A stretch of DNA of 64,000 nucleotides from assembly GCA_038890815.1 (NCBI GenBank), contig JAWAFC010000002.1, positions 41,067 to 105,066 on the forward strand, read 5' to 3'. This DNA is from Candidatus Micrarchaeia archaeon. GTDB lineage: Archaea > Micrarchaeota > Micrarchaeia > Burarchaeales > JACRGF01. Both the position numbers and the translations under genes were made by a program. The notes under the pieces were generated by a model, which had not been told where the DNA came from, did not search any database, and saw only the letters and a program-made list of their open reading frames with translations. Numbering within the stretch: the first letter of the stretch is position 1; the number at the start of each line of letters is the position of its first letter. Below, in pieces: positions 15,783 through 63,124 of this stretch.

Positions 15783-15835
15783 GCAAAGCTAGGCGGGAAA
15801 GGATATAAAATGCTTGTGAGCCAAATTTACGAGGC

Positions 15836-43849: not shown

Positions 43850-45184
43850 ATGAACTATGCAAGCCTCAGGAAAAAAATCAGCGAGAAGAGCGCGCTCGTG
43901 TGCGTGGTTGGCCAGGGCTACGTTGGTATTCACCTTTCGGTCGCTTTTGCGCGCGCCGGCTTCCGCACAACAGGCTTTGACATAAGCGAAAAGCGCATTG
44001 CCGAGCTGTCACGCTGTTATGACAGCGCCGGGGAAGTCGGCGAGGACACGCTCCGCGAGCTGCAGGCGAGCGGAAAGCTCGCCTTTACCACGAATCCAGC
44101 TTCCATCAGCGAGGCTGATTTTATCTTGCTCGCCCTCCCCAGCCTCCTCACAAAGAAAAAGGAGCCGGACCTATCAGCTATTCGCGCTGCAAGCGAAACT
44201 GTCGGAAAGCATATGAAGCGCGGCGCGGTTGTCGTGCTCGAGTCAAGCGTCTACCCTGGTGTGACTGAGGAAGAGGTTCTTCCGCGCCTGGAGGAGCTCT
44301 CTGGCATGAGAGCTGGCATCGATTTCTCTGTAGGCTATTCGCCGGAGCGTGTGAATCCGGGCGACCCAGAACATTCGTTAGAGAAAATTGTGAAGGTGGT
44401 TGCCGGCCTGGATGACGAGACGACCGATCTCCTTGCTTTTCTCTATGGCCACATAACAAAGGCTGGCACATTCAAGGCCAAAAACATCAAGACTGCCGAG
44501 GCTGCCAAAATCATCGAGAACATTCAGCGCGACCTCAACATTGCGCTCATGAATGAGTTCGCCATCATCTTTGAGCGCATGGGCCTTAGCATATGGGATG
44601 TGTTAGAGGTTGCGAAGACGAAATGGAACTTCATACCATTTAAGCCAGGCCTTGTGGGCGGTTATTGCGTACCCGTCAATCCCTATTACCTCGTATACAA
44701 GGCGCGAAGGCTCGGCTATCGCCCAAGAGTCATGCTTGCCGGCCGAAGCACGAACGACTCCATGCCAAAACACATTGTCAGTTTGACAGAGAAGGCGCTT
44801 GCGAGGGTGGGGAAAAAAACAAAGGGCTCGCGCGTGCTGGTGCTTGGCCTGAGCTTTAAGGAGAACGTACGTGATCCGAGGTTTTCCCCTGTCAAGGAGG
44901 TTATTAAGGGTCTGAAGAGAAAAGGCTGTGCTGTGCTCGCGCATGACCCCCTCCTCTTTAAGTTTGATGTGGAGAAGGAATTTGGAGTAAAAAATCTTGA
45001 TAATTTTGGGATGGCTAGTGGTGTGGATGCAATAATTCTTGCTACAGGTCACAACGAATTTAGGAAAATACCTCTGAGCGAGCTGAGGCGAATCTGCAAC
45101 GAAAAGCCTGTGTTGGTTGACACGAGGAATTTCTTCAGCGAAAAGGAAGGGGAATCGGCCGGATTCATAGTAGTGCGACTATAG
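43850..45184 (+). CDS. UDP-N-acetylhexosamine 6-dehydrogenase (WbpO/TviB/WecC-like nucleotide-sugar dehydrogenase)
   Basis: 444 aa. It has the N-terminal Rossmann VCVVGQGYVGIHLSVAFA, a catalytic-Cys region, and the C-terminal VLVLGLSFKENVRDPRFSP block typical of the UDP-Glc/GDP-Man dehydrogenase family. Confidence 0.7.
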   Translation: MNYASLRKKISEKSALVCVVGQGYVGIHLSVAFARAGFRTTGFDISEKRIAELSRCYDSAGEVGEDTLRELQASGKLAFTTNPASISEADFILLALPSLLTKKKEPDLSAIRAASETVGKHMKRGAVVVLESSVYPGVTEEEVLPRLEELSGMRAGIDFSVGYSPERVNPGDPEHSLEKIVKVVAGLDDETTDLLAFLYGHITKAGTFKAKNIKTAEAAKIIENIQRDLNIALMNEFAIIFERMGLSIWDVLEVAKTKWNFIPFKPGLVGGYCVPVNPYYLVYKARRLGYRPRVMLAGRSTNDSMPKHIVSLTEKALARVGKKTKGSRVLVLGLSFKENVRDPRFSPVKEVIKGLKRKGCAVLAHDPLLFKFDVEKEFGVKNLDNFGMASGVDAIILATGHNEFRKIPLSELRRICNEKPVLVDTRNFFSEKEGESAGFIVVRL

Positions 45185-45203
45185 GTCAAGCGCAATCCAT
45201 TGA

Positions 45204-47072
45204 CTAAAATTCAATTTTAAAGGCATCGCTCCATAGCTCAAGCTCAAGCAGCGCCCACAGCTTGTAGGAATACGCGGCCCTACCTTTCCTGTGCTCATTG
45301 AGCATCCTGAACACTTCGTCCTTGCTGAACAGTTTTGCGCATACTCTACCTTCTGCTATTTTTTGCTCAAGGAACTCGCCAACCTCTTTCTTGAACCATG
45401 GACCGAGCGGAATTCCGAACCCACGTTTTTTCCTTTCCAGAATCTCCAGCGGAAGCCACGGCTTAAGGGCGCGCTTGAACACATGTTTAGTCTCGAGCCC
45501 ACGGAGCTTAAGGTCGCTAGGAATTGTCGCGGCAAACTCAACAAACTCGTGATCGAGCAATGGTGCTCTCGCCTCAAGACTGTGCGCCATGCTCGTTCTG
45601 TCTACTTTTGCAAGAATATCATCGGGCAAATAGGTATTGAAATCTGCGTACATCATCTTGTCCAGTTGTGTCTTTGCATTGCGCTTTGCAAAACAGGCCG
45701 TAATCGATTTCTGGGACGCCGCCTTTTTTAAGCTTGCGAGCCTGCCCTCTTTATACAGCCTTTCTCTTTCCTCGTTGCGATAGAACGACACAAGCTCGGC
45801 ATATCTCTCCGGAAGTGGGAGTCGTGCGAGGGCTTCGAACTTCTCTGCGCGCTGCGCGAGCAGGTGCATCCCAACAAAAGAGAGTGCTTTTTTTGCGGCC
45901 GCCACGCCGATAGCTCTGAGTGGTTGTGGGATTTTTGCATATCCTCTAAGCAACATATCAATAACATACCTATCATAGCCAGCGAAATTCTCATCGCCAC
46001 CATCCCCAGACAACACAACCGTCACATAGCGTCTCGCAAACTCTGAGACCATATAAGTCGGAACTGCACTTGCATCTGCGAAAGGCTCGTCTAAGTACCA
46101 TGCAATTTTTGGAAGATTTTTTATCACGTCTTTTGGATAGAGAATCTTCTCATAATGCTTTGTCCCTAGATGCTCGCTTACCTCTCTTGCGAAAGAGAGT
46201 TCGCTGTAGTCACTTTCCTCGAATCCGATGGTGAAGGTCTTGACATCCTCCGTAGCAACTTTCGTCATCGCAGCGACAACCGCGCTGGAATCTATCCCTC
46301 CCGAAAGAAAGGCGCCGAGCGGAACATCGCTTATAAGGCGCATGCTCACGCTCTCTTTGAGCCTCGAAATAATTTCATTCTCCCAAGCCTCCATACTCAT
46401 CTTCAGGGGTCTGTACCATATATCCCAATATCTATGCAACTCCATCCCTTTTTTTGTCACCAATGCATAATGTGCTGCCTGAAGTTTCTTGGCACCTAAA
46501 AAAATCGTTCTCGGCGCTGGAATATACTGCAGTGCTAAGAACTCGTCGAGCGCGCGCCAATCAATAACCTTACTGATCACGCCACTTTCACTCAGCGCCT
46601 TAAGCTCGGATGCAAAATAAAAAACTCCATCGCGCCACGAATAATAAAGTGGCTTTTTCCCTAATCTATCTCTAGCCAAAAAGAGCATCTTTCTCTTTGC
46701 GTCCCACAGTGCGAATGCAAACATCCCACGCAGACGGGACAGGCAGGCTGTCCCCCACTCCTCATATGCATGAACAATTGTCTCTGTATCGCTCTTTGTT
46801 GTAAAGCGATGTCCACGTAGTTCAAGCTCTTTACGGAGTTGTTGGTAATTGTATATCTCCCCATTGAAAACGATATGGACATCCCCATCCTCATTGCTCT
46901 GTGGTTGATGGCCAGTCTTAAGATCTATAACACTTAGCCTACGCATGCCAAGCGCAACGTTTCGCTCAGCAAATATACCCCAGTCGTCTGGCCCACGGTG
47001 ACGTAAGAGCGCTAGCATACGCTTCAGAATGTTTGCGTCGCCAGGACCCAGAAAACCCGCGATGCCACACAC
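45204..47072 (-). CDS. asnB: Asparagine synthetase-like glutamine amidotransferase (AsnB/WbpS-type), paralogue 1
   Basis: 622 aa. The N-terminal MCGIAGFLG has Cys2 as the Ntn nucleophile. The central ...SGGIDSS... PP-loop ATP-pyrophosphatase motif is LSGGIDSSAVVA. Confidence 0.8.
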   Translation of the reverse strand: MCGIAGFLGPGDANILKRMLALLRHRGPDDWGIFAERNVALGMRRLSVIDLKTGHQPQSNEDGDVHIVFNGEIYNYQQLRKELELRGHRFTTKSDTETIVHAYEEWGTACLSRLRGMFAFALWDAKRKMLFLARDRLGKKPLYYSWRDGVFYFASELKALSESGVISKVIDWRALDEFLALQYIPAPRTIFLGAKKLQAAHYALVTKKGMELHRYWDIWYRPLKMSMEAWENEIISRLKESVSMRLISDVPLGAFLSGGIDSSAVVAAMTKVATEDVKTFTIGFEESDYSELSFAREVSEHLGTKHYEKILYPKDVIKNLPKIAWYLDEPFADASAVPTYMVSEFARRYVTVVLSGDGGDENFAGYDRYVIDMLLRGYAKIPQPLRAIGVAAAKKALSFVGMHLLAQRAEKFEALARLPLPERYAELVSFYRNEERERLYKEGRLASLKKAASQKSITACFAKRNAKTQLDKMMYADFNTYLPDDILAKVDRTSMAHSLEARAPLLDHEFVEFAATIPSDLKLRGLETKHVFKRALKPWLPLEILERKKRGFGIPLGPWFKKEVGEFLEQKIAEGRVCAKLFSKDEVFRMLNEHRKGRAAYSYKLWALLELELWSDAFKIEF

Positions 47073-47081
47073 ACAAAACCC

Positions 47082-48032
47082 TCAACCATTCTCCCTAAAC
47101 CATCTCACAAACTTCTTGATACCTTCATCAATTGACGTACGCGGCTCATATCCAAGCATCCGTCGCGCTTTCGAGATGTCCGCATACGTTATTGGAACAT
47201 CACCGGGCTGAGGAGGAAGATGCGTGATCTTTGCTTTTTTCCCAACATTTTTTTCTATGAGCGTAATAAGCTCGTTGAGCGAAACAGTTCGTGAGCCACC
47301 TAAGTTAAATATCTCGAAACTGAATGGCTTTTCGAGTGCAGCGAGTATTCCCTGTACGATGTCATCTATGTAGGTATAGTCTCTTTTCATGCTACCGTCC
47401 CCAAAAACTGGAATCTCTTTTCCTTCGCTGATGAGGCGAACGAACTTGTGGATAGCCAAATCTGGCCTCTGGCGCGGGCCATAAACTGTGAAAAGGCGTA
47501 GCACTGTCACAGGTATGCCATACAGATGGCTGTAGGTGAAACAGAACAGTTCTGCCGCGCGCTTGCTTGCAGCATACGGTGAGATGGGCTGGGCTATGGG
47601 ATCTTCCTCACTGAACGGCACTTTGTTGTTTATGCCGTACACGCTGCTGGAGGAGCCGAAAATGAATGTTTTGAGTTTCGCGTTTTTGCATGCCTCAAGC
47701 AAGCTGATGGTTCCATTCACGTTTACATCCGCATATTCGAGTGGCCTTTCTAGCGAAGGGCGCACACCTGCCTTCGCTGCGAGGTGGATGACTGCTTCCG
47801 GTTTTGCCTGCGCGACAAGACTCTTCATTCTTTTTGTATCGCGAATGTCAGCCCGGACTAGTTTGAAAAGTCTGTTTTTCTTAAGCGCAGCGATGTTTCT
47901 TTCTTTTATTCTGCGGTTATAGAGGAAGGAATCAAAGTTGTCTACTCCTATGACGTTGTTTCCTCTACTAACCAGCGCCTCACACACATGCGAGCCGATG
48001 AAGCCTGCTGCACCAGTAACTAAAATCCTCAT
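47082..48032 (-). CDS. NAD-dependent epimerase/dehydratase (UDP-glucuronate 4-epimerase-like SDR)
   Basis: MRILVTGAAGFIGSHV with the YAASKRAAE YxxxK catalytic motif. Confidence 0.7.
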   Translation of the reverse strand: MRILVTGAAGFIGSHVCEALVSRGNNVIGVDNFDSFLYNRRIKERNIAALKKNRLFKLVRADIRDTKRMKSLVAQAKPEAVIHLAAKAGVRPSLERPLEYADVNVNGTISLLEACKNAKLKTFIFGSSSSVYGINNKVPFSEEDPIAQPISPYAASKRAAELFCFTYSHLYGIPVTVLRLFTVYGPRQRPDLAIHKFVRLISEGKEIPVFGDGSMKRDYTYIDDIVQGILAALEKPFSFEIFNLGGSRTVSLNELITLIEKNVGKKAKITHLPPQPGDVPITYADISKARRMLGYEPRTSIDEGIKKFVRWFRENG

Positions 48033-48060
48033 GAGAAAATTTTGGCGATGAAATTAAAAA

Positions 48061-49014
48061 CTATCCTCTTCCGATGTCAGACCGTCTTCCAAAAACGAAC
48101 ATAAGTATCCCAATGCAGAAAAAGACCCCCTGCAGGAGTTTGAGCGCCAGCGCCGGAATATACTCCCAGTCTCTTCTTTTTAATGCCAGCAGGGCAAACC
48201 AAAGCGCGATGATGTCGAATGGAAGCGAGAGCAGCGCGAGCAATGGATGCGAAAATACTGTGAAAGCTACCAATGCGGCGAACGATACTAACAAGCCAGG
48301 CAGTCGGACGAACTCCAGCCTTCTTGTCTTTATCATGTAAATCGGTGCAGTCCTGCCATACCACAGCGCGCTCTTGACGAATTCACTAAATGATTCTGGC
48401 ACATTAGAGTACTGAATTGCCCTGCGCTCCAAGACCTCAATTAAACCCTTTTTCTTACAATATGCTTTCAGCCTTTCTCTGAGCTCCATGTCTTCGCCCA
48501 CCCCCAATTTTGCAAACCCACCGACATCGAAAAACACCGTTCGGCGTATCGCGCCGGCTGCAGACATCGTCCCATCAAAAGGTCCTGCAAACGATGGGTA
48601 ATGAAAATATTGCTGCTTAAGGTAAAGCCTCTCAAACCAAGTATGCACGACAAACTGGTAACGCGTCATGACACCAGCTACACGTGGATCTTTGAAATGT
48701 CTCAATACACGAAAGAAGTAAGCTCTGTTGTATCCATCAAAGTCGGCGTCACAAAAAGTAAGAAAAGGGGCATTTGTGGCCCTCGCACCCTGATTTCGTG
48801 CGCCCGCTGGGCCGGTCTTTTCTTTTTGGTGCAGTACTTTACAGCCAAACTTTCTTGCAACTGTAACTGTACCATCGGTGCTTCCACCATCAACTACGAT
48901 GATCTCCTTGTCCGGATACGGATTTTTTGTCAGATTGTACAATAGCTTCTCGAGTTTCTTTTCCTCATTAAGTGCTGGGATGATTATTGCAACTTTCCCA
49001 AAACTCTTTTTCAC
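48061..49014 (-). CDS. Family-2 glycosyltransferase with C-terminal TM helices (Dpm1/AglJ-like)
   Basis: The N-terminus VAIIIPALNEEKKLEKLL...IIVVDGGSTDGT...DADF has the GT2 DxD context. Two or three C-terminal hydrophobic helices follow. Confidence 0.65.
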   Translation of the reverse strand: MKKSFGKVAIIIPALNEEKKLEKLLYNLTKNPYPDKEIIVVDGGSTDGTVTVARKFGCKVLHQKEKTGPAGARNQGARATNAPFLTFCDADFDGYNRAYFFRVLRHFKDPRVAGVMTRYQFVVHTWFERLYLKQQYFHYPSFAGPFDGTMSAAGAIRRTVFFDVGGFAKLGVGEDMELRERLKAYCKKKGLIEVLERRAIQYSNVPESFSEFVKSALWYGRTAPIYMIKTRRLEFVRLPGLLVSFAALVAFTVFSHPLLALLSLPFDIIALWFALLALKRRDWEYIPALALKLLQGVFFCIGILMFVFGRRSDIGRG

Positions 49015-50177
49015 TCAATCAACTCTCTATACAGCTCATGATGCTTTTTTGCAGTCATGCGAATATCATGATGTTTTCTCGCATAAGCAAATGCTCTCGT
49101 TCCGATTTTTCTATTGAGTTTGGTATCTTCAAGCAGCATGCGGGTGGTCTCAATCAATTTATTGAAATCTCCTTTTGCATGAAAACCGATTTTCTCCTTG
49201 CACAAGACCTCATCCGGGTCAACATTTAGCGAAACAACGGGAGTTTTCCTCAGCCAAGCCTGAATAAACGTATTGGGAAAACCAGCGCTATCGCTTGTAT
49301 CGACAAGCACACTTGCTCTGGCAATAATGGCGTTAACTTTTTCTAAAGATTGAAATGGAAGTATTTCGACATTTTCCGTTTTCTTAGCGAGCTCGAGCGT
49401 TTTCGCGAAAATGTTGTAAGTCTTTCCCATTATATCTTTCTCCTGTATTGCTCCGACCATGACAAACTTATAATGTGGGAATTTTTGCGCGAGCTCGATA
49501 AACTGCATTGGAAATTTATAGTCAGCAGTCCTCCCTACCCACACTGCAAACGGAGGATCGGATTTTTTTGGGAGACTTTTCGGTACCGGGTGGCCAGAAG
49601 GAATGATACGAATATCCGCATTAGGCATGCATTGAGCCATTGCTTTGCGGAGGTATTCTGCAGTAGCAATAATTACATTGGCGTTTTTGAGCCCATAAAG
49701 ATAAAGTCTTTTTTTAATTGTATTTCTGAAAAACCCCCTCCACATATTTCCAGACAGCGTACAGTCATCGATGTGCGCGATGGAGAAGACAAAAGGTCTG
49801 GCATTCTTCTTTGCATGATGCGCGAAATAACCCGTTGCGATGTTGCTCCCCCTCTGGTGATAAATGTCCGCTTTAAAGGAGTTGAGCACGCGCGTGAAGA
49901 AAGGGTGAGAATAAGTAAGAAAGGAATTGAGCGCGAAGAAGGGAGCCGCTTCCACCAAATCCCATAGCGAGCGCTTGAAAGTCCTCACCTTGTGGAGTAT
50001 CTGTCCCTTCCTAACAATTGTTTCTGGCTGCCCCTCGTCATCAACCAAATAGTGTGTTTGCCAACCAAGCCTTTGTAACTCCTTCCCGATCAAGTAAAGC
50101 TGTATCTCAGCGCCCCCCACTCTTCTGCTCACGAGCGGATGACCCATTGTATAGTAGCAAACGCTTTTCCCGCTCAT
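49011..50177 (-). CDS. Family-4 (GT-B) glycosyltransferase
   Basis: 388 aa with a GT-B fold pattern and a C-terminal E-x7-E-like region. The ATGA overlap with the downstream GT2 gene indicates an operon. Confidence 0.6.
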   Translation of the reverse strand: MSGKSVCYYTMGHPLVSRRVGGAEIQLYLIGKELQRLGWQTHYLVDDEGQPETIVRKGQILHKVRTFKRSLWDLVEAAPFFALNSFLTYSHPFFTRVLNSFKADIYHQRGSNIATGYFAHHAKKNARPFVFSIAHIDDCTLSGNMWRGFFRNTIKKRLYLYGLKNANVIIATAEYLRKAMAQCMPNADIRIIPSGHPVPKSLPKKSDPPFAVWVGRTADYKFPMQFIELAQKFPHYKFVMVGAIQEKDIMGKTYNIFAKTLELAKKTENVEILPFQSLEKVNAIIARASVLVDTSDSAGFPNTFIQAWLRKTPVVSLNVDPDEVLCKEKIGFHAKGDFNKLIETTRMLLEDTKLNRKIGTRAFAYARKHHDIRMTAKKHHELYRELIE

Positions 50178-51856
50178 CTCTTGCTCACCATGATGTTTCC
50201 CATTACGAGATGTCTAAGCCCAGACCGCTCCATTGTGTAAAGCGCATCTGTAGGCGAGCACACCATCGGCTCACCATGGAGGTTGAAGCTCGTGTTCAGC
50301 ACGCCACCGATTCCTGTCTCTTTTTCAAAATATTCCAGTATCCTGTAGTAGTCAGGATTGCTCCAATTTTCGAGTATTTGTGGCCTGAGTGTGAAATCGG
50401 CGGGATGCATGGCCGCGACAAGCTCCTTGCGCGCGAGCGGCTTCGAGCGGAAGGCCATTATCATGTAAGGTGCAGGAATCTTTTTCGGATTGATAAGATA
50501 GTCATCTGCTCTTTCCGCGGACAGCGTGGGCGCAAATGGCATCCAAAAGTCCCTGCTCTTTATCTGCTCGTTGATGATGCGTACGGTCTCCCATGTGCTT
50601 GGGTTTGCGAGAATTGCCCGGTTCCCGAGACTCCGTGCACCCCATTCCATTCTGCCGGAGCAGCGTGCGACTATCTCGCCCTCAGCAAGTAGGCCCGCGA
50701 TTTCTTTGGCGATATTCTTACATCGTCTTACATCGTAGTTTTTCCCGAGACGCGCGAGTGCCTCCTTGATTTCTTTTTCGCCGAACTCCATCCCTAAGTA
50801 GAGGTCCTTTAGTGGTGTAGTAGGCGCGTCCTGTCCAGCCAATTCCTTGTAGGCGTAGAATACCGCACCGAAGGGCGTACTTTCGTCTCCGCATGATGGC
50901 AACGGGTAGAGTTCCTCCACTTCTGGAAGTTCGCTGATGAGCATGTTAGCCTTGACGTTCATGAAAACGCCACCTGAGAGAATAACACGCCTTACGCCTG
51001 TTTTTTTTACTGCAGCTCTCACCCACCTCACAAGCAGGTCTTCTGTCAGCCGCTGCACACTCGCTGCAATGTTATCGAACCTCTCGTGTTTGAGCATTTC
51101 ATCTAGATAGAAGAGCGAGCGCTGTGTGTTAAAAGCCGACTTGAACGAGAGCTCGTTCTCATCTAACCAAATCATGGGCTTAAACACCCTCTCATAAGTC
51201 TTTTTGTAATACTCTTTCGCATAGGGCGCGAGGCCCATGAGTTTGTACTCATGCTCGAGTGGCTTCATTCCCATATAGATTGTTGTCGCGGCGTACACAA
51301 GGCCAATTGAGGCCTCCAGCGGTGTTGCGGCGATCCTTCTGATTCTTCCCTCGCGCGCAATGTTGACCGTCGCGCACAGGCCATCTCCCTCGCCATCGAG
51401 CGTGAGCACGAGGGCTTCCTCGATTCCATCAGTCATGCCAAAATAGCCCGCATAGGCATGACAGGTATGGTGGTCTATGAAATGGATTTTACTCTCCGGA
51501 ACGCCAAGTCTTTTCAAGAGGATTTTTTTAACTGCCTTTCTGCCAGCCGCGCTCCTTCTTTTCCGAATAAAGTGAACAAGTGGGAGGGCAATGACGCGAA
51601 GAATCGGGTGGGCGTAGTCTATTGTTGCCCAAATGCTTCTTGCGGCGCTCGGCATGCCAAGTGCAACCCCACGTGCCTTTTCGTAGTCGGAATGATTTTC
51701 TGTCGAAACGACCGCAACCGCATCCAATTCTTCGCCCGTGATCCCCTCGCTTTCAAGAACCCATTTCCACGAATTTGCGGGTACTGCGTCCTCATTTTTC
51801 CTGCGCGTAAACCTTTCCTCGCTCACCGCCCTAACTATTTTTCCGTCTTTGAGCAA
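50174..51856 (-). CDS. NodU/CmcH-family carbamoyltransferase (COG2192). The annotated TTG start truncates a conserved N-terminus; an in-frame ATT at complement 51899-51901 may be the true start.
   Basis: ...LLKDGKIVRAVSEERFTRRKNEDAVP matches the family N-terminal block. The 14 codons upstream in-frame (IYILGIVFGHNSTVA) match the family consensus M-Y-I-L-G-I...H-D-S-A-A, with ATT in place of ATG. Confidence 0.7.
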   Translation of the reverse strand: MLKDGKIVRAVSEERFTRRKNEDAVPANSWKWVLESEGITGEELDAVAVVSTENHSDYEKARGVALGMPSAARSIWATIDYAHPILRVIALPLVHFIRKRRSAAGRKAVKKILLKRLGVPESKIHFIDHHTCHAYAGYFGMTDGIEEALVLTLDGEGDGLCATVNIAREGRIRRIAATPLEASIGLVYAATTIYMGMKPLEHEYKLMGLAPYAKEYYKKTYERVFKPMIWLDENELSFKSAFNTQRSLFYLDEMLKHERFDNIAASVQRLTEDLLVRWVRAAVKKTGVRRVILSGGVFMNVKANMLISELPEVEELYPLPSCGDESTPFGAVFYAYKELAGQDAPTTPLKDLYLGMEFGEKEIKEALARLGKNYDVRRCKNIAKEIAGLLAEGEIVARCSGRMEWGARSLGNRAILANPSTWETVRIINEQIKSRDFWMPFAPTLSAERADDYLINPKKIPAPYMIMAFRSKPLARKELVAAMHPADFTLRPQILENWSNPDYYRILEYFEKETGIGGVLNTSFNLHGEPMVCSPTDALYTMERSGLRHLVMGNIMVSKR

Positions 51857-51921
51857 AGCTACTGTGCTGTTGTGGCCGAAGACTATCCCTAAAATATAAA
51901 TAGTTCCACCCGGTACTTATT

Positions 51922-53097
51922 ATGTGTGCGAGGTTTAAAAAAATGATTCGCGTTTTTTTCAACCTGTCTCCGCGCCACAGGGTTCGCTTCCGCGAGACTG
52001 TCTGGCATCCACCTCCAGGAGTTATCTATGTGAACAAAATCCCTCCCACCTGGAAGGATACAAACATCAGCCCGGCAGATCCACTGCGAGAGCGTGCTAC
52101 AAATCTTTTGAAAAAAGTTATTGATATTTTCCGTATTCCGAACATCCGCCTCGCCCGTCCGAACCTCCCATGCGACCTTATCCATGCACCCGGCCAGCTT
52201 TTGCTCAATCGCCAGCAGTGGGTGACAGAGATTGACAACCCTGCGGTTCTCACTCTTTATAATCTCAACACGCTCTACTCACGAATAGGTCAGTTTTGGA
52301 TAAAGCGATTTCTCCGCTCACGCCACTGCGGAGGGGTTATTGCTATTAGCCAGGCGGCAAAAAAAAGCCTTGCGAATGTTCTACGTGATGATGAAATAAA
52401 CTCAAAAACTTCTGTTGTTTATCCTTTCGTACGTCTCTCGCCCTTTAGGAAAAAGCCGAGCGAGCACATCCGTCTCCTGTATGTGAGCACTAGTTTCTTC
52501 CGCAAGGGGGCGCGCGAGCTCCTCAAGGCATTCGAGAGGCTTAACAAGATGTTCCCCAATAAGCTTTCGCTCACTCTTGTCACAAACGCCCCCAAGGAAT
52601 ACATCTCACGCTATTCACGTTTTCCCAACATCCGTCTCCTTCCCGCAAACATTCCGAAGGAAATTCTTTATCGCGACTTTTTTTCGGATGCCGACATTTT
52701 TGTTGTTCCGACTTACCAGGACAGCTTCGGCCTCGTCAATCTCGAGGCCATGAGCGCCGGCCTGCCAGTTGTTGCTACTGATCTTTTCGCACTACCCGAG
52801 ATGGTAGAAGACGGTAGAAACGGCTTCCTGCTACCGTGCCCCATACCTTATTTTAGGCCGGATTACACACCGAATCCTGCCGTATGGTCATTGAACTTGG
52901 AGGAGTACTGCAGCCGAAAGGAGTTTCCGGAAATAGTCAATGGGCTGATCGAAAAGTTGACCATACTCATTGAGGACGAAAAACTCAGGAGGCAAATGGG
53001 CGAACGCTCACTGAAAGCTGTTAAGGAAGGAAAGTTCAGCGAGAAAGTTCGCGCGGCCTCACTTATTCAAGCTTACCGCCGCGCGTTGGGTGAGTGA
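51922..53097 (+). CDS. Family-4 glycosyltransferase; start uncertain
   Basis: The C-terminal GT4 signature [39 protein letters not shown] (E-x7-E) is present. The N-terminal ~35 aa of the track ORF may be a 5' over-extension. Confidence 0.65.
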
Positions 53098-53098
53098 A

Positions 53099-55033
53099 TT
53101 GTGCGGAATAGGTGGAATCTACTGTTTCAATGGTGGAAAAGTACGAAAGGCCGCTCTTAAAAGTATGATCTCGGTCCTGCGCCACAGGGGGCCGAACGGC
53201 TGTGGTGTGAGGGTCTTCGACTCGGCAGGCCTTGCTCATACACGCCTAAGCATTATCGACCTTTCGAAGCGCGCCACACAGCCAATGAGCAATGAGGATG
53301 GCAACTTATGGATCGTGCTTAATGGCGAAGTATACAACTACCGTAAGCTCAGAAGCGAGCTCACGCAAAAAGGCCACCGTTTCAGGAGCGCGAGCGACAC
53401 TGAGGTCATTCTCCATCTTTATGAAGAAGAGGGCGAGCGTTGCTTGTCACGCCTACGCGGAATGTTCGCATTCGCGCTTTACGACAGAAGAAAGAACGAA
53501 ATGTTTCTCGCACGCGACAGGATAGGCGAGAAGCCTCTCGTATATGGGATTTTCAATAACGTTCTATATTTCGCCTCGGAGATTCCCGCCATTCTCAATG
53601 CTTCCGGCTGTCCTAGAGAAATCGACCTTGAGGCTCTCCATCATTACTTCTCTGATTCTTGGTATCATCCCCCCGCGCCCTACACGATCTTTAAGGGAAT
53701 TAGGAAGCTGCCAGCTGGTTGCTTCGCGCGCGCCACAAGAGAGGGACTCTGCATCAGGAAATATTGGTCTCTCGACTTTGGCAGAAAAAGCAAGGCAAGT
53801 GAGGCCGAGTTGTGCAGAAGCCTGCGCAATAGGTTGCGCGAGGCAGTGAGATTGCAACTCGAGAGCGATGTGCCAGTTGGCATCATGCTGTCTGGTGGCA
53901 TCGACTCTTCCTCCATAGTGCTGGCCATGCGCGAGCTTGGGGTGCAGACCATCCGCTCTTTTGCTGTTGGCTTCAGCAAGGATGACGAGGAGCTACAGCG
54001 TGCGCGCCTCGCAGCAAAATTTTTTGGCACAAAACATACCGAGCTCATAATAAAGGCCGATGATATCTCACGCTTGCCAGAGATGATCGCGCTTTATGGA
54101 GAGCCCATCAGTCTGTTGCCTGCGTTCTACACGTTCGAGCTCTCAAGGCTCATGAATCGACATGTCACGGTTGTGCTCACTGGCAACGGCGGCGATGAGC
54201 TCTTCGGAGGATACGACTACTATAACAGAGTGCGCCTACTCTCTATTCTCTCACGTATTGATTTCCTTTTACCGCATTCTCTGTTTGGACTAGCCGGCAG
54301 AGCGCTCGGCGCGCTCTTTACAAAAGGCTTTCTTTCCGAAATCGCATTGGGCTTGCGTATTCTTGGTAGCAGTTTTTTCAAGAGAAAGGGCTTGTCGGCT
54401 CGCGAGGATGGCGAGCGGCTCCGCCGTTCTCTCTACTCCCCGGCAGTGCGTGAAAAACTGGCACGCTCGGATACTGGAAGACTGCTCGATGACGCTTTCG
54501 CCGAACCGCAGTGCGGAAGCTACTTTGATCGTGTGCTATACGCAGACCTGACCGTAGGCAACTCGCACTCCGTAGTGGTCTCAAGCGACGTGGGCGGCAT
54601 GGCACACGCGCTTGAGATGCGCTCCCCTTTTCTCGACCCAGGGCTTCTTGAGTTCTCCTCCATCCTGCCTGAACGAATGAAAGTTCGTTCTCTTTTTGAC
54701 CCCTCACAGAACAAGTACATCCTCAAGAAAGCTATTGAGAGCGATGTGCCCGCGGAGATCGTATCTGCAAAAAAAATGGGCTTCGGGTTCAACATTCCTT
54801 GGCGTGCCTGGATGAAAACGAAGTGGAGGCGCACCATACATAGCCTGTTGTTTGATGGCTCGCTTGCCCGCTCGGGTCTGTTCGACATGAACTTCGTTAA
54901 AAAAATTTTTGAAGAGAATTCAAGCGGAAGAGCAGACCACTCTAGACTACTTTTTGCTCTAGTTGTCTTCTCGATCTGGTACAAGCTCTTTATTGAGCGC
55001 GTTTCTGTGAAAAGACTAAAACTTAAATTCTGA
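53099..55033 (+). CDS. asnB: Asparagine synthetase-like glutamine amidotransferase, paralogue 2 (TTG start placing Cys at position 2)
   Basis: From TTG 53099 the product begins (M)CGIGGIYCF. The track start at GTG 53090 would place the catalytic Cys at position 5, which is incompatible with Ntn amidotransferases. The PP-loop is MLSGGIDSSSIV. Confidence 0.75.
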   Translation: MCGIGGIYCFNGGKVRKAALKSMISVLRHRGPNGCGVRVFDSAGLAHTRLSIIDLSKRATQPMSNEDGNLWIVLNGEVYNYRKLRSELTQKGHRFRSASDTEVILHLYEEEGERCLSRLRGMFAFALYDRRKNEMFLARDRIGEKPLVYGIFNNVLYFASEIPAILNASGCPREIDLEALHHYFSDSWYHPPAPYTIFKGIRKLPAGCFARATREGLCIRKYWSLDFGRKSKASEAELCRSLRNRLREAVRLQLESDVPVGIMLSGGIDSSSIVLAMRELGVQTIRSFAVGFSKDDEELQRARLAAKFFGTKHTELIIKADDISRLPEMIALYGEPISLLPAFYTFELSRLMNRHVTVVLTGNGGDELFGGYDYYNRVRLLSILSRIDFLLPHSLFGLAGRALGALFTKGFLSEIALGLRILGSSFFKRKGLSAREDGERLRRSLYSPAVREKLARSDTGRLLDDAFAEPQCGSYFDRVLYADLTVGNSHSVVVSSDVGGMAHALEMRSPFLDPGLLEFSSILPERMKVRSLFDPSQNKYILKKAIESDVPAEIVSAKKMGFGFNIPWRAWMKTKWRRTIHSLLFDGSLARSGLFDMNFVKKIFEENSSGRADHSRLLFALVVFSIWYKLFIERVSVKRLKLKF

Positions 55034-56528
55034 TTGCACCTCTCGCTATTTTCAGTAGTTCGGCGGGTTCCACTGCCCTGAAAAGAAAAAGTAGCAGGCC
55101 GTAGGCAAGTGTGGCGACCAGACCAAAAAACAGTAATATCCTCCAGCTGGATTCGAAACCGGCGAGAAGCTGTGAGAGCACGAGCAGGCAGATGAGAGAG
55201 GCCACGGCTGGCTTGAGCAGAAGTTGTACGTCGAACGGAATGTCCGCGTGCCTGAGCGCGTAGGCTGTAATAACTCCTGCAGACAGGAACTTCATTGCCA
55301 GTATGGATGCCACTATTCCCATTAGGCCGAACACCGGAATAAGCGTTACATAGAGGAGGACCTGAAGAACGGTGGTAGCGAAGTTTATTCGTGCGGATAT
55401 GTCAATCCTTCCTGTGCCTGTCAGTAGCATGTCTGCAGCCTGAAAGAGTGTGAAGGCAATTGTCAGAGGCGACAGATAGACAAGAAGCGTGCTGGCCTCC
55501 GCATACTGAATCCCATAAACTAATTTCACAAAGCCCGGTGCGAGTAGGGCTATGCCCAATACTGCCCAAAAAGAAAAGGCGAGCCCATACTGTAGTGTCT
55601 TTTTGTACATTACCGCTTTCTTCTCAGGTTTCCTTGCATAAGAAGAAACAAAAACAGCCGAGCTGAACGGGAACACTGAGTTAGGGAAGTTTGCCCACGA
55701 AAAGGCTGTTCGAAAAATGCCAATAGCAGAGGCAGGCAAGAAGAGCGCCGTTATCGGCGCGTCGATAAACATAGAAATAAGATAGTTAAACGTAACAAGC
55801 GTGCCATAAGCGAAATATCTCCTTACAACCTTCGGCATACCCTCAATCGTTGTCTCGAAATTCGGGAAAAGAACCCTTCTCTTTGCATAAAGCAGCGCAA
55901 TCGCGAGTGTCAGGCTCGCTGCAGCTGACAGCACGAAAGCCCAGAGCACGCTCACAAAACCCCCAAATGCAAAGAAAAAGATGAACGGAAGGATTGCCCT
56001 TAGCCCAAAGTGTGTCGCGGTTGTCAGGAAAGTGTAAAACGATTTTCTGAGAGCCGAGAACACCGTAGCATAAAACCCAGACAATGAGTAGAGTGCAGTA
56101 AGAAGAGCGCTCACCTTAATTGGTTCCGAAAGGGACGGATTCTTGAGGCCGAGGGCTATCCATGGCGCTAGGAGAAAAAGGAGTGCTGCAGCGAGCGCCG
56201 ACAGCATCCACTTAGATTTCTCGAAGAACCTGAAGTACGCCCACGCACGCTCGCCGTGTCTCTGGGGGATAAAGTAGAGGGCTGCCATTCCGATGCCGAA
56301 CTCGGTGAAGAACAACCACAGGCTCGAGACTGCTATCACTAGGGAGAGCAGGCCGAACCCCTCGCTTCCCAACAGCGTAGGAAAAAACCACACGTATACG
56401 AGGCTTGTCACTACTGTGGAGTACTGCGCTGCGACCGCGAAAACGTTCTCACGCGCCACTACCAAATACCATGGGGGTTTTTTCTTCATTGCCTCACGGG
56501 CATCTTCCACACATGAAAATGAACCCAT
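55023..56528 (-). CDS. Wzx-like oligosaccharide flippase (MOP/polysaccharide biosynthesis protein family)
   Basis: Start at MGSFSCVEDA (complement 56526-56528), 2 nt after the stop of the upstream gene. About 14 TM helices, with the family architecture. Confidence 0.65.
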   Translation of the reverse strand: MGSFSCVEDAREAMKKKPPWYLVVARENVFAVAAQYSTVVTSLVYVWFFPTLLGSEGFGLLSLVIAVSSLWLFFTEFGIGMAALYFIPQRHGERAWAYFRFFEKSKWMLSALAAALLFLLAPWIALGLKNPSLSEPIKVSALLTALYSLSGFYATVFSALRKSFYTFLTTATHFGLRAILPFIFFFAFGGFVSVLWAFVLSAAASLTLAIALLYAKRRVLFPNFETTIEGMPKVVRRYFAYGTLVTFNYLISMFIDAPITALFLPASAIGIFRTAFSWANFPNSVFPFSSAVFVSSYARKPEKKAVMYKKTLQYGLAFSFWAVLGIALLAPGFVKLVYGIQYAEASTLLVYLSPLTIAFTLFQAADMLLTGTGRIDISARINFATTVLQVLLYVTLIPVFGLMGIVASILAMKFLSAGVITAYALRHADIPFDVQLLLKPAVASLICLLVLSQLLAGFESSWRILLFFGLVATLAYGLLLFLFRAVEPAELLKIARGAIRI

Positions 56529-56530
56529 CA

Positions 56531-57229
56531 CTATTTTTTCCCTACATACAAAAGCTCGGAGCCGTTTCCTGGGAGAAAAGGGCCTCCCGGAAGCAAGTAG
56601 CTCAACATGAACATGCGGTAACTGAAAGATTCGCACACAACTGTTTTGAACCCGCTTATCTCAAGTGCTTGCCTAAGCGACAGTCTTGTAAACGGCTTTA
56701 CGTGCGTGGGGTCCGACCAAAAGCTGAATCCCACTTTTTCAATGTCCGGAGTCCGAATGATGATTATGCCGTCCCTTTTTAGTCGGCTGTGGAGACCTTT
56801 AAGCACTGAAACAGGGTCATCCAGATGCTCCAGAACATGGTTTAGGATTAGCACGTCCACAGAATTTTTTGCCAAAGGAATCTTTTTCCGCACGTCAGCC
56901 TGACAGAAAACAATCCCTTTTGCTTCTAGTTTTTTTCTGTATGTCGCATCGATATCCACCGCAATCTTTTCCTTTATCCTCCGGTCCATCAGAGAGAGCG
57001 CCCAGCCATCGCCAGGCCCAATCTCCACAACCGACAGGCCTGGTTTGTTGCAGTACCGGTCAATAAAAAATTTCAGAAATACCGCGTAGTGGTTTTTTTG
57101 TCCAATTTGTGAGACAGCCTTCCTTTCCAACAAGTAGGTAATCCACCTGGAAAGCAATCCCTTCTTTTCCCGATATCTCTCTGCGACCTTTAGGTATCCC
57201 ATTGAATTCGCCTTACCTCCTTTTTTCAT
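56531..57229 (-). CDS. Class I SAM-dependent methyltransferase
   Basis: VVEIGPGDGWALSLM glycine-rich SAM motif I, followed by DVLILNHVLEHL (motif II/III). Confidence 0.6.
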   Translation of the reverse strand: MKKGGKANSMGYLKVAERYREKKGLLSRWITYLLERKAVSQIGQKNHYAVFLKFFIDRYCNKPGLSVVEIGPGDGWALSLMDRRIKEKIAVDIDATYRKKLEAKGIVFCQADVRKKIPLAKNSVDVLILNHVLEHLDDPVSVLKGLHSRLKRDGIIIIRTPDIEKVGFSFWSDPTHVKPFTRLSLRQALEISGFKTVVCESFSYRMFMLSYLLPGGPFLPGNGSELLYVGKK

Positions 57230-57959
57230 GGCGCGTCCCGCCAGGAGGAAGTACCCCCTCCATCATCCTGTTCGCCGCGCGGTAGCTCTCTATTGTGCCT
57301 ATGTCGAGCCAGTAGTCTGGGTCATACACGAAGCCAGCGAGCCTGCCTTCCCTTGCGAGCTTTGGGAATACCACCTCCTCCACCTTTGCTTTCCTGTGCG
57401 GGAGGAGCTCGAGCACACTCTTGCTAAGGACATAATAGCCAGCATTGGCTAGGTTGCTGGGCGCTTCCTCCTTCCTCGGCTTCTCCACAAACTTCGTGAC
57501 TAAGTCGTCCTTAAGCTCGGCAATGCCGAACCTGCTTACCTCATGCCACGGAACCCTGAACAGCGCTATTGTAGCGAGCTTTTCTTTTTTCCTATGGAAT
57601 TTCACCATCTCTCCAATGTCTATATTCGTAACATTGTCCCCGTACGCCACGACAATATCCTCGTTTATCTCCTTTTCCACGCACACAGCCCTCAGGTCGC
57701 CACCTGTTTCCCATCCAAGCGTCTGTACTGTCTCGATCACGATGTTGTCACGGGGAGTGTGCCTGAGATAATTTTCCAGCGTCTCGCGCATGTGCGACAC
57801 TGCTACATAAATTGTTTTGATTTCCCTACAGGTAAGGAGGTTATCGATAACGTAGTCGATGACTGGTTTCCCTCCAACGGGCAGAAGTGGTTTTGGGATA
57901 GCATATGTCAGTGGGCGAAGCCTCGTCCCTTTCCCTGCAGCCAATATTACAGCCTTCAT
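57213..57959 (-). CDS. Sugar-phosphate nucleotidyltransferase (glucose-1-phosphate thymidylyl/uridylyl-transferase-like)
   Basis: Start at MKAVILAAGKGTRLRPLTYAIPKPLLPVGGKPVIDYVIDNL. The track ORF start at 58043 would overlap the upstream ugd gene. Confidence 0.7.
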   Translation of the reverse strand: MKAVILAAGKGTRLRPLTYAIPKPLLPVGGKPVIDYVIDNLLTCREIKTIYVAVSHMRETLENYLRHTPRDNIVIETVQTLGWETGGDLRAVCVEKEINEDIVVAYGDNVTNIDIGEMVKFHRKKEKLATIALFRVPWHEVSRFGIAELKDDLVTKFVEKPRKEEAPSNLANAGYYVLSKSVLELLPHRKAKVEEVVFPKLAREGRLAGFVYDPDYWLDIGTIESYRAANRMMEGVLPPGGTRHEKRR

Positions 57960-57963
57960 CTTT

Positions 57964-59280
57964 TCACCCAACGCTTTTCCTCCCAATCCCCCTGTAGCAA
58001 AGACCGGCAAGTGCTTTTCTTGGTAGCACGTCTCTTCCTTCAATCACGACCGCTGGCTTGCTGGCCATAAGCGAAAAGTCCTTTTGAGAAAGCCGCTTAT
58101 ATTCTTTCCATGCTGTAAGGATGATGCATGCATCAGAACCCTTCAACGCAGCATGCGCGCTTTCGGCATATGCAATTTTTTCACCGAAGGTATTTTTCGC
58201 GTTCTCCATTGCTTTTGGATCATGCGCTATGACCGAAGCGCCCTCCTTTAGCAGCGCAGGGATCACTTTCAGAGATGGCGCCTCCCTCATGTCGTCAGTA
58301 TTCTCTTTGAAGGCAAGGCCTAGCACCGCGATGCGCTTCCCGCGCAAAGTCCCGAGCGCTTCCTTTGCCAGCTCGATTGTTTTGAGCGGCTGCTGTGCAT
58401 TCACATCCAGCACGGCCTGGATTATCCTTGGCTCAACGCCTACGCTCCTGGCTGTGTGCGCAAGTGAGGCAACATCCTTTGGAAAGCAGCTTCCGCCGAA
58501 GCCAACGCCAGCATTCAAGAAGGCCCGTCCGATCCTCCTGTCGAGACCCATGCCATCAGCAATATCATATACATCAATTCCGAGCTTCTGGCAGATGTTC
58601 GCAATCTCATTGATAAAGGAAATTTTTGTGGCAAGAAAGGCGTTGCTTGCGTACTTTATCATCTCGGCAGTCCGCCAGTCAGTCTGCAGGAAAGGACACT
58701 TGAAACGTGTGTAGAGCTTGCGCATCGCAGTGACATCCATTTTATTCTGCGCTCCGACGACAATCCTGTCCGGGTTGAAGAAATCGAAAACTGCATTTCC
58801 TTCTCTGAGAAACTCCGGGTTGGCACACGCGCCGAAGCCATCACCGAATTTTTTTCCGCTCGTCTTCTCAATTATCCCAACAATTTTTTCTGTAGTGCCC
58901 GGTGGGACTGTGCTCTTGACAACAACTACCGGGCGTTTTTTGCTTTCCGCGAGCGCCCTGCCAATGTTCGAGGCTGCCTCCTCAACAAACCGCAGGTCTG
59001 TCGAGCCATCCGCTCTGCTCGGTGTGCCTACGCAGATGAAGACTATCTCCGACTCAGCAATCGCGCTTTTTCCATTGGTCGTTGCCGATAGCTTTTTTCT
59101 CTTAACATTTTTTCTGATCAGCACGTCGAGGCCAGGCTCGAATACGGGCGCGCGTCCGCTGTTGATGGCATTTACCTTTTCTTTGTCAACATCAATGCAC
59201 GTTACGTGGTTGCCCAGCTCGGCTAGTCCAGCAGCCTGCACAGAGCCGACATAGCCAACGCCGACAACAGCGATTCTCAT
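57964..59280 (-). CDS. ugd: UDP-glucose 6-dehydrogenase
   Basis: MRIAVVGVGYVGSV Rossmann start, the catalytic Cys region GFGGSCFPKD, and the C-terminal VLGLAFKENTDDMREAPS block. Confidence 0.8.
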   Translation of the reverse strand: MRIAVVGVGYVGSVQAAGLAELGNHVTCIDVDKEKVNAINSGRAPVFEPGLDVLIRKNVKRKKLSATTNGKSAIAESEIVFICVGTPSRADGSTDLRFVEEAASNIGRALAESKKRPVVVVKSTVPPGTTEKIVGIIEKTSGKKFGDGFGACANPEFLREGNAVFDFFNPDRIVVGAQNKMDVTAMRKLYTRFKCPFLQTDWRTAEMIKYASNAFLATKISFINEIANICQKLGIDVYDIADGMGLDRRIGRAFLNAGVGFGGSCFPKDVASLAHTARSVGVEPRIIQAVLDVNAQQPLKTIELAKEALGTLRGKRIAVLGLAFKENTDDMREAPSLKVIPALLKEGASVIAHDPKAMENAKNTFGEKIAYAESAHAALKGSDACIILTAWKEYKRLSQKDFSLMASKPAVVIEGRDVLPRKALAGLCYRGIGRKSVG

Positions 59281-59335
59281 ATAATGTCTTTGGCATGTAA
59301 TTATTAATGTACATTTCTACTAAGCTAAGAAAAGC

Positions 59336-60517
59336 ATGCGCATCTGCATGGTATCAACCGATTTTCCATATGCCACCGCTAGGGGCGTGATCACCCAAGG
59401 CGGAGGTGGGGCCTGCATCGCCCAGCTAGTGGAGGCACTCCTTCGAAGAGGGCATAAGGTTACTGTAGTCACGCGAGCCGAAGAAAGCGGCCCCGTAAAG
59501 GAATTGTTTAACATTCCAATTATACGCACGCGTTTCGCCTGGCTAGGCTTCCGTGAGAGCAAAATAACCCACTCGCTGTTTTCCTTGCCAGCGCTCTTTC
59601 GCGTGCTGGCAAGCGGACACTTCGATCTTATTCACGCTCACAATCCAGCAGCCGCGCTTCCATCTATCCTCGCTGCCCGTTGGTTCTGCCTCCCCTTACT
59701 TCTCACCATGCACGGCCCCTGGGCGAGTGTGAGGCAGCGTGCTGTCATCAGATGGCTTGCGCGCAGAATAGAGCACATAGCACTGCTAGGGGCTGACCAT
59801 ATCACTGCCGATTCACACGCGTTACTGAACGAACTTGTGGCAATTCATCACCTCTCACGCTCGAAATTCACCTGCATCCCAAACGCTGTGGACACCACAA
59901 TGTTTTCTCCGGAAAAGATGACGCAGTCTGCCGCACGACGAAAACTTGGCCTCCCCGCAAAAGGAAAGGTTGTTTTGTTTACTGGCAGGTTTGTGGCAGA
60001 GAAGGGCTTGCCCGATCTCCTCGAAGCAGCATCCATACTTTTGGGGAAAGGCGAAAAATTCACCCTACTCTTAATTGGTGGCGGTTTTGATGAGCATGTC
60101 GTCAGGGATTGGTTAGCACGGCACAATGGCTTCCGCAACCACATCATCGTTAAGCCTTACGTCGCGTACGAGAACATGCCAATAGCGTACATTGCCAGCG
60201 ATGTGTTTGCACTTCCTTCCCTAGCCGAAGGCATGTCACGTTCTCTGATGGAGGCCGTAGCGTGCGGCAGGCCAGTTATCGCGACAGATGTAGGAGGTAA
60301 TCCCGAGATAGTGCAGAGGGAATTTGGCATGCTGGTTCCGCCGCGAAACCCACCGGCTCTGGCCGAAGCCATCCACGTACTCCTCGCAGACGAGAAAAAA
60401 AGGAAAAAGATGGGAATGGCGGCGAGGGCTTTTGCCCAAAAACACCTGAGCATCGCTGCAAGGGTGCGCGCCTTCGAAAAAATCTACGAAAAACTGGTGG
60501 CGGGATGTGCGGAATAG
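59336..60517 (+). CDS. Family-4 glycosyltransferase
   Basis: The GT4 C-terminal motif EGMSRSLMEAVACGRPVIATDVGGNPEIV. Confidence 0.65.
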   Translation: MRICMVSTDFPYATARGVITQGGGGACIAQLVEALLRRGHKVTVVTRAEESGPVKELFNIPIIRTRFAWLGFRESKITHSLFSLPALFRVLASGHFDLIHAHNPAAALPSILAARWFCLPLLLTMHGPWASVRQRAVIRWLARRIEHIALLGADHITADSHALLNELVAIHHLSRSKFTCIPNAVDTTMFSPEKMTQSAARRKLGLPAKGKVVLFTGRFVAEKGLPDLLEAASILLGKGEKFTLLLIGGGFDEHVVRDWLARHNGFRNHIIVKPYVAYENMPIAYIASDVFALPSLAEGMSRSLMEAVACGRPVIATDVGGNPEIVQREFGMLVPPRNPPALAEAIHVLLADEKKRKKMGMAARAFAQKHLSIAARVRAFEKIYEKLVAGCAE

Positions 60518-62262: not shown

Positions 62263-63124
62263 CCATCACAAACGCCTCGAAGCCGCGCTAACACGTATTT
62301 ATGCATCCATTTCGCGCAGGCCATCTCGCTCGTACTACGAGAGCCAGCTTAGAAACTGGCGCGATGAAATTGTAAGCCATGAGCTCATCGCAGCACAACT
62401 CCTTCAGCAACTCCAGAAATGGACAAGCTCCAAAACATATTGCCGTATATTGGATGTAGGATGCGGCACGGGCGATTTGGTCCTTGCTTTTGCAAAGAAC
62501 ACTTCCGCAACAGGCATCGACATAGATCACCAGTTCATTAAGGCTGCAAAACTTAAAGCAGTTTACCTCAGAAGGAAAAAAGCGCGTTTTTTTGTTGCAA
62601 GAGCAGAGAACCTGCCGTTTCCAGACAATTATTTTGATCTAGTTGTTTGCAAAACAACTCTCGAGCATGTAAACGATGTGGAAAAAGCCATTTCCGAAAT
62701 GGTTCGTGTACTTAAACCAGGTGGCTGGATGTATATAGAGGCGCCAAACTATTTCTGGATTTGGGAGGGACATTATGGGCTTTTTATGTTTCCTCTTCTT
62801 CCCAAATCACTTTTCAAGTTATATGCACGCTTGGTCGGTAAAGATCCAGCATTTATTCAGTACATCAATTACCTAACTCCTTGGCAGCTCGAGCATTTGA
62901 TGAAAAAGTTTGGGTTATGGTTTAAAAATCTCTCACCGGAGAGATACCGACGAATCATGACGCACCCTGAAGAGCTCTCAAAGGACTCTAAGCCAAGACA
63001 TTTTTGGCTTCTCAGAATACTTTCGCGGATCGGACTCTCACAACTTTTAAGTGCACTCATGTTATCGCTTAAATTCTATCCATCGCTTATCTACCTCGCG
63101 CAAAAGCCAAAAGGGGCAAACTGA
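62252..63124 (+). CDS. Class I SAM-dependent methyltransferase
   Basis: ILDVGCGTGDLVLAF (motif I) and DLVVCKTTLEHV (motif II). Confidence 0.6.
   Translation: MSTDHHKRLEAALTRIYASISRRPSRSYYESQLRNWRDEIVSHELIAAQLLQQLQKWTSSKTYCRILDVGCGTGDLVLAFAKNTSATGIDIDHQFIKAAKLKAVYLRRKKARFFVARAENLPFPDNYFDLVVCKTTLEHVNDVEKAISEMVRVLKPGGWMYIEAPNYFWIWEGHYGLFMFPLLPKSLFKLYARLVGKDPAFIQYINYLTPWQLEHLMKKFGLWFKNLSPERYRRIMTHPEELSKDSKPRHFWLLRILSRIGLSQLLSALMLSLKFYPSLIYLAQKPKGAN

Follow-up and report, generated by a model that had tools for sequence, protein, structure and literature searches.

Initiation of translation at AUU has been described in Escherichia coli, where the codon gives 1-2% of AUG and where infC and pcnB start with AUU and are translated less than from AUG (bioRxiv 10.1101/063800). 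In the archaeon Haloferax volcanii, ~30% of putative alternative initiation sites were placed at near-cognate codons (PMC7261190). Here we examine a 64,000-nt stretch of DNA from Candidatus Micrarchaeia archaeon (contig JAWAFC010000002.1, positions 41,067 to 105,066; hereafter the window), in which a minus-strand carbamoyltransferase gene carries ATT where its start ATG would be expected. The reading we favour, with a confidence only somewhat better than even, is that a single ATG-to-ATT substitution left an intact gene, from which the full-length enzyme would be made by weak near-cognate initiation at AUU. This is a one-gene case of a known, rare phenomenon, and the public record already annotates the gene in this way. 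Verified AUU starts are very rare, and for archaea we are aware of none that has been verified for an individual gene.

Reading frame and amino terminus of the carbamoyltransferase

Read from ATT, the carbamoyltransferase coding sequence spans 50174..51901 on the minus strand, with 575 codons followed by a TGA stop (50176-50174). From 51919 the minus strand reads TAA (51919-51917) GTA CCG GGT GGA ACT ATT (51901-51899), continues TAT ATT TTA GGG ATA GTC TTC GGC CAC AAC AGC ACA GTA GCT, and then enters TTG (51856-51854) CTC AAA GAC, so that the translation of the frame is *VPGGT-IYILGIVFGHNSTVA-LLKDGKIV. The in-frame TAA (51917..51919, minus strand) closes the frame upstream and thereby bounds the N-terminal extension. 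No ATG, GTG or TTG was found in frame between this stop and TTG 51856, leaving no canonical in-frame start able to encode the conserved N-terminus. The TTG (51854..51856, minus strand) is the first canonical in-frame start, and both the list of open reading frames (ORFs) and a Prodigal-type call (P0001) begin the gene there, giving 560 amino acids. The stretch from ATT to GCT encodes IYILGIVFGHNSTVA in 15 codons (45 nt); a preliminary description of this DNA was right that the codons upstream of the TTG contain no stop but had counted 14 of them. A second in-frame ATT at codon 3 (51893..51895, minus strand) is a minor alternative near-cognate start.

The 15 upstream codons resemble the N-terminus of the family to a degree far beyond chance, as judged from profile and alignment. 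The Pfam Carbam_trans_N profile (PF02543) scored 129.9 bits with the protein read from ATT, aligning residues 3-346 with profile positions 2-344 of 346, compared to 115.6 bits with the protein read from TTG, where the match opened only at profile position 17. The gain of 14.3 bits corresponds to odds of ~20,000 to 1. In 13 of 45 aligned homologues (47-54% identity) the column of the ATT (51899..51901, minus strand), our proposed AUU initiation codon, is Met-1, within openings such as MYILGI, MYVLGI and MNILSL, and the remaining homologues mostly start one residue before it. The closest homologue has ATG TAT ATT TTG GGA at the DNA level, compared to ATT TAT ATT TTA GGG in the window. The membership in the NodU/CmcH family, the conserved N-terminus upstream of the TTG and the ATT in place of ATG, all claimed in the preliminary description, are thus borne out by the Pfam domains and PDB relatives (below), by the gain in the profile match and by the Met-1 column, respectively.

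Codons 2-15 (YILGIVFGHNSTVA; 51857..51898, minus strand) comprise the predicted strand beta-1, a loop with His10 (CAC 51874-51872) and the start of beta-2. In a set of 47 full-length sequences that includes the window protein, His10 is replaced in none, and Leu4 is nearly invariant. In the alignment, His10 falls on the histidine of TobZ DFHDASAALL, the N-terminal general-base histidine that we take to be H14 in that enzyme, and on NovN His27. In a structural study of GdmN, the role of general base, taking the proton from the acceptor hydroxyl, was assigned to H27 (PMC9633730). The window protein has this N-terminal histidine in His10, and requires a start upstream of the TTG to contain it. An AlphaFold model of the protein (predicted local distance difference test score, pLDDT, of 89.5; predicted template modelling score, pTM, of 0.91) reached a pLDDT of 92 over residues 1-10 and placed beta-1 at residues 2-6 and beta-2 at residues 13-18. 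The TTG corresponds to residue 16, and a product initiated there would lack beta-1, the loop bearing the histidine and one half of beta-2. We do not consider such a product credible as a functional isoform, since both beta-1 and the catalytic histidine would be gone. By alignment and model, the upstream extension is needed by the enzyme both structurally and catalytically.

The remainder of the protein is well preserved. Downstream of the Kae1-like N-terminal domain, the YrdC-like carbamoyl-AMP-forming domain (PF16861) was matched with 186.9 bits over profile positions 1-170 of 170, and the PDB relatives 7xb6, NovN, GdmN and TobZ were matched at E values of 1e-55 to 1e-64. The metal ligands H144, H148, D169 and D339 fall in columns invariant across the 47 sequences; their equivalence to the metal-binding residues H133, H137, D156 and D333 of GdmN (PMC9633730) was assigned by the HHxxH motif and not by superposition. 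All 77 family-invariant columns are kept in the window protein, and the frame is unbroken over the 575 codons. By these features the gene is an intact class-III (NodU/CmcH/TobZ-type) O-carbamoyltransferase with predicted activity.

The public annotation of the gene agrees with the longer reading. NCBI protein MEM4389307.1 (P0121) has 575 amino acids and starts MYILGIVFGH, i.e. at ATT 51901, and is identical to the translation read from ATT except for Met-1 in place of the ATT-encoded residue. We found this record within the cluster of P0001, the Logan protein started at TTG. The NCBI record therefore already annotates the gene from ATT, and the Prodigal-type call takes the TTG. A literature search on how the Prokaryotic Genome Annotation Pipeline (PGAP) handles ATT starts returned nothing specific. 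PGAP accepts ATT starts on homology evidence, and MEM4389307.1 is itself an example.

Promoter and ribosome-binding signals

The ATT is preceded by a Shine-Dalgarno (SD)-like element, GGGTGG (51906..51911, minus strand), whose GGTG core ends 5 nt before it. In the background, GGTG occurs at spacers of 3-11 nt in 4% of cases and any SD-like 4-mer in 14%. Operon-internal starts in the window have GGTG at spacers of 5, 6, 5 and 8, with 5 being the modal spacing. No SD-like 4-mer was found 3-11 nt upstream of TTG 51856, and the spacer from GGTG to the second ATT (51895) is 11 nt. The well-defined starts of the window fall into two classes: ~10 genes have leaderless geometry, with the first base of an A/T-rich box 32-34 nt upstream of the start, and the operon-internal starts are preceded by GGTG or GGAGG.

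An A/T-rich box resembling a TATA box with B recognition element (BRE), AATCATTTTTTTAAA (51934..51948, minus strand), is the candidate promoter of the carbamoyltransferase operon. Using a matrix built from 10 other leaderless promoters in the window, we obtained 11.9 bits for the box starting at 51948 (AATCATTTTTTT, 51948-51937) and 10.8 bits for the one starting at 51947, scores reached by <0.1% of positions. The modal offset of AATCATTTTTTT predicts a transcription start site (TSS) near 51914-51916. The 12-mer TTTAAACCTCGC is common to the 5S rRNA and carbamoyltransferase promoters in the same register, and predicts a TSS at G51911. The ATT would then lie 10-15 nt inside the transcript (predicted TSS about 51911-51916) and behind GGGUGG, in keeping with the claim of the preliminary description that an A/T box upstream places the ATT within the transcript. 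GGTG 5 nt upstream and a predicted leader of 10-15 nt together provide a ribosome-binding context for the ATT, to which we give modest weight. The 12-mer is common to the regions 33512-33556 and 51912-51956 (minus strand); within 64 kb a match of this length is not unusual as a chance event, and it is the shared register that is notable. The 5S rRNA gene of the window stands alone and, together with intron-containing tRNA genes, marks the DNA as archaeal.

Leaderless initiation was also considered and rejected, as the -30 to -36 slot was inadequate for each candidate codon: ATT 51901 scored -2.2 bits, ATT 51895 3.8, ATA 51886 -6.7 and TTG 51856 2.4.

A short out-of-frame ORF (51889-51909, minus strand; GTG GAA CTA TTT ATA TTT TAG, VELFIF*) starts inside GGGTGG and overlaps the ATT. 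Its GTG 51909 sits 2-7 nt from the predicted TSS. Entry into the carbamoyltransferase frame by a frameshift from this GTG was rejected: translation from the GTG meets a stop after 6 codons (VELFIF*), the third frame, into which a +1 slip on the T-run would lead, is likewise closed by a stop, and a -1 shift has no X XXY YYZ heptamer to act on.

AUU initiation and its alternatives

The preliminary description had offered an AUU start, a recent loss of the start codon and a sequencing error as the three explanations of the ATT; this framing holds, and on sequence evidence AUU initiation appears the best supported of the three. We rank it first based on the GGTG spacing, the promoter box, the otherwise intact gene and the independent NCBI call from ATT. 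Under this reading the ancestral ATG would have become ATT by one G-to-T change. The A/T box at 51948-51934 would direct transcription to begin 10-15 nt upstream of the ATT, and GGGUGG 5 nt before AUU would assist initiation. Initiator Met-tRNA would then start the full-length enzyme at AUU, probably at a small fraction of AUG efficiency, leaving the gene weakly expressed rather than truncated. The TSS, the use of the SD-like element and initiation at AUU itself are the predicted parts of this scheme.

Several observations weigh against AUU initiation. All 45 homologues inspected have canonical starts, which indicates that the ATT is a single mutation and not a family trait. No orthologue with >53% identity to the carbamoyltransferase, the gene itself aside, was found in 5.8 billion proteins. 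SD-like 4-mers precede 9 of the 33 well-defined starts, compared to the 14% background, and the first genes of operons in the window are mostly leaderless; SD use is a minority mode here, and the SD evidence is therefore worth only an approximately three-fold likelihood ratio. The out-of-frame GTG 51909, placed inside the SD-like element, could compete with initiation at the ATT or otherwise influence it. The archaeal initiation factor aIF1 also discriminates against non-canonical starts (PMC6237735).

The strongest alternative, which we regard as possible though distinctly less probable than AUU initiation, is that the G-to-T change inactivated the gene, yielding at most a truncated, dead protein from the TTG and making the locus a very young pseudogene. 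In its favour, the canonical starts of all inspected homologues mark the ATT as a derived single mutation, and the gene lies in a lower-GC (~0.50 vs 0.60), probably acquired and dispensable glycosylation island of a genome belonging to DPANN, a group under reductive evolution. A palindromic box at 51890-51902 could, in addition, drive minus-strand transcription and yield a transcript containing only the TTG, as suggested by the box that a tRNA-Met gene and its divergent neighbour appear to share elsewhere in the window (see below). AUU is, in addition, a poor initiator in E. coli, at 1-2% of AUG (bioRxiv 10.1101/063800). Against this, further lesions expected of a pseudogene were not found in the uninterrupted 575 codons, all 77 invariant residues are intact and the confidence of the structural model is high; from the absence of a second lesion and the intact invariant residues we estimate that neutral decay is bounded to less than ~2% divergence, a bound within which a very recent loss would still fit. 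The 15 codons that a start at TTG would orphan still encode a consensus N-terminus, including His10 and Leu4. The SD-like element is ideally spaced for the ATT with none before the TTG, and the TTG product, without beta-1 and the catalytic histidine, would be implausible as a functional isoform.

Initiation at another near-cognate codon, either the second ATT (51895, codon 3) or ATA (51886, codon 6), for example leaderless via a weak CATAATAAG box, appears very improbable. A protein started at codon 3 would retain most of beta-1 and His10, and the 32 nt by which ACACATAATAAG precedes ATT 51895 are the modal distance for leaderless starts in the window. The ACACATAATAAG box reaches only 3.8 bits, however, a level attained by ~5% of random positions, and none of the homologues starts at the codon-3 column. 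The GGTG spacings of 11 nt or 20 nt are beyond the observed range, and leaderless initiation is generally regarded as relying heavily on a 5'-terminal AUG.

The least probable explanation is a sequencing or assembly error with ATG as the true codon: the site differs by one base from the expected codon in a metagenome-assembled genome (MAG) and lies in an A/T-rich run (ACTATTTATATTTTAGG), but the change is a substitution and not a homopolymer-length difference, and assembly error is made unlikely by a Logan contig (run SRR27730023) that matches the window with 100% identity across 7,683 nt, ATT included, the GenBank MAG contig and the Logan contig having been made with different assembly software perhaps from the same reads, so that their independence is incomplete.

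We also searched for the ATT, and for relaxed start use in general, beyond this one gene. Scans for exact patterns in which any third codon base was allowed gave 0 matches in genome_contigs and metagenome_contigs, and hence no strain variants with ATG. With respect to conservation of the non-canonical codon, the more distant homologues carry ATG or TTG, and the nearest is only 53% identical. Recurrent non-canonical starts within the family were suggested by two homologues, P0026 and P0060, and rejected, as these have canonical TTG and ATG, respectively, at the MVYILG position, with GGTG 6-7 nt before them. Given these canonical starts, their truncation is attributed to gene-caller errors. Both database proteins are truncated N-terminally by start miscalls (L002 1450; L005 1451). 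An upstream UDP-glucose/GDP-mannose dehydrogenase at a homologue locus (L002/L003/L004 1-1443) contains an intein (Intein_splicing and LAGLIDADG matches).

Genome-wide relaxed start use was likewise rejected, on the evidence of the window: of its other ORFs, those with at least 10 start-less upstream codons were translated from stop to stop and compared with Pfam, and no domain extended upstream of the first canonical start. The most suspicious frame, a 371-codon open frame at 8733-9845 (minus strand), includes 97 codons without ATG, GTG or TTG and begins directly where the gene upstream of it stops. This frame has no Pfam match, no homologue and no gene call in any database, and having no homologue and being nowhere called, it is regarded as a spurious high-GC ORF. 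The overlapping plus-strand ORFs at 8330-9052 and 9078-9845 also have no Pfam matches.

Divergent neighbour, genomic setting and comparison with known systems

A GT4 glycosyltransferase with Pfam GT1/GT4 domains is encoded divergently at 51943..53097 (plus strand), with 384 amino acids from ATG 51943 and ATG 51922 as an alternative in-frame start. NCBI and Logan both call the 384-amino-acid protein, four homologues start at the same point and GAGGT (51930-51934) lies 8 nt upstream of ATG 51943, which by sequence is the most likely start. The two genes are arranged head to head over 51890-51948, with ATT 51901 (minus strand) and ATG 51943 (plus strand) 41 nt apart. Each gene has a TATA-like box that overlaps the start codon and first codons of the other: the carbamoyltransferase box at 51948-51934 covers the glycosyltransferase ATG, and the candidate glycosyltransferase promoter TAAAATATAAATA (51890..51902, plus strand; identified by matrix score) overlaps carbamoyltransferase codons 1-4, including the T of ATT. 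The predicted 5' ends of the two transcripts overlap by ~10 nt.

Carbamoyltransferase codons 1-4 (ATT TAT ATT TTA), read as their reverse complement, form the best glycosyltransferase box, TAAAATATAAAT (51890-51901, plus strand), which lies 31-32 nt upstream of ATG 51922. With a matrix built without this site, the box scored 8.4-9.2 bits as observed and 5.3-6.5 bits with an ATG codon; the G-to-T change puts A for C in the box core and raises the matrix match by ~2-4 bits. A trade-off may be imagined, in which ATT tunes the carbamoyltransferase down and strengthens the TATA-like box of its neighbour, so that the glycosyltransferase is tuned up. We consider this improbable, as the fit, drawn from a 10-site matrix and predicted TSSs, points to it only weakly. 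The overlap illustrates how, in small archaeal genomes, tight packing of divergent promoters can tie the coding sequence of one gene to the regulation of the next.

A second divergent pair is formed by a tRNA-Met gene (15836, plus strand) and a protein gene ending at 15782 (minus strand), 53 nt apart (15783-15835). A palindromic TATA box (GGATATAAAATG / CATTTTATATCC) lies at the right distance for both, which suggests that one box is used bidirectionally. Two further tRNA genes are long and presumably contain introns (14103-14219, minus strand, and 20494-20583, plus strand). The 117-nt gene was matched by Rfam and missed by ARAGORN, and the tRNA-Trp gene is 90 nt.

The carbamoyltransferase is the first of five minus-strand operon genes, followed by a GT4, a GT2, an epimerase and an AsnB-like amidotransferase, and the first two junctions overlap (ATGA and GTGA). 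The GC content falls from ~0.60 to ~0.50 over window positions ~44000-64000, a glycan-biosynthesis island that was probably acquired horizontally. Three AsnB-like amidotransferase paralogues with obligatory Met-Cys-Gly N-termini were observed in this island, each with a different start codon: GTG 47072 (minus strand), TTG 53099 (plus strand; the ORF list has GTG 53090 instead) and ATG 60505 (plus strand).

For annotation, the practical meaning concerns the start site. The correct call is the homology-aware one of NCBI, with 575 amino acids; the Prodigal-type call of 560 amino acids loses beta-1 and the catalytic histidine, and expression or modelling of the enzyme should use the version started at ATT with Met at position 1. 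A true AUU start would give the N-terminal peptide (M)YILGIVFGHNSTVALLK, and a TTG start (M)LKDGKIVR. If confirmed in a DPANN archaeon, AUU initiation would be a small, useful data point on archaeal start-codon fidelity.

The window protein shares its Kae1-like and YrdC-like architecture with TobZ, NovN, GdmN, NodU and CmcH (PDB 3VEN, 9S2T, 7VYJ, 7XB6), together with the metal-binding H-x3-H, D and D and the N-terminal histidine. It differs from the solved TobZ-type enzymes in its low identity to them and in the ATT at the start of its gene. In contrast to the TobZ-type enzymes of antibiotic pathways, it is encoded among GT4, GT2, epimerase and AsnB-like amidotransferase genes, which suggests a cell-surface glycan as its target.

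Compact divergent archaeal promoters are known whose TATA boxes lie near or within the coding sequence of the neighbour. In the window, similarly, the TATA-like box of each gene is ~32-47 nt upstream of its start codon and overlaps the first codons of the other gene. The window differs from the known promoters in that its TSSs are predicted and the link between the TATA box and the choice of ATT is hypothetical.

With respect to initiation, the window gene resembles E. coli infC (IF3) and pcnB in that a conserved protein would have AUU as its only full-length start, with an SD element upstream. In infC, the AUU start is retained from species to species and lets IF3 regulate its own synthesis, whereas the window ATT is unique among the 45 homologues and without evident regulatory logic. 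The window's organism is also archaeal and uses aIF1, aIF1A and aIF2, and AUU use is here predicted from sequence. Ribosome profiling of Haloferax volcanii did identify near-cognate codons that are not AUG, GUG or UUG as initiation sites, as proposed for the carbamoyltransferase, with these sites being putative alternatives that the authors set aside to limit false positives (PMC7261190). In contrast to those sites, the near-cognate codon in the window would serve a conserved enzyme as its only productive start.

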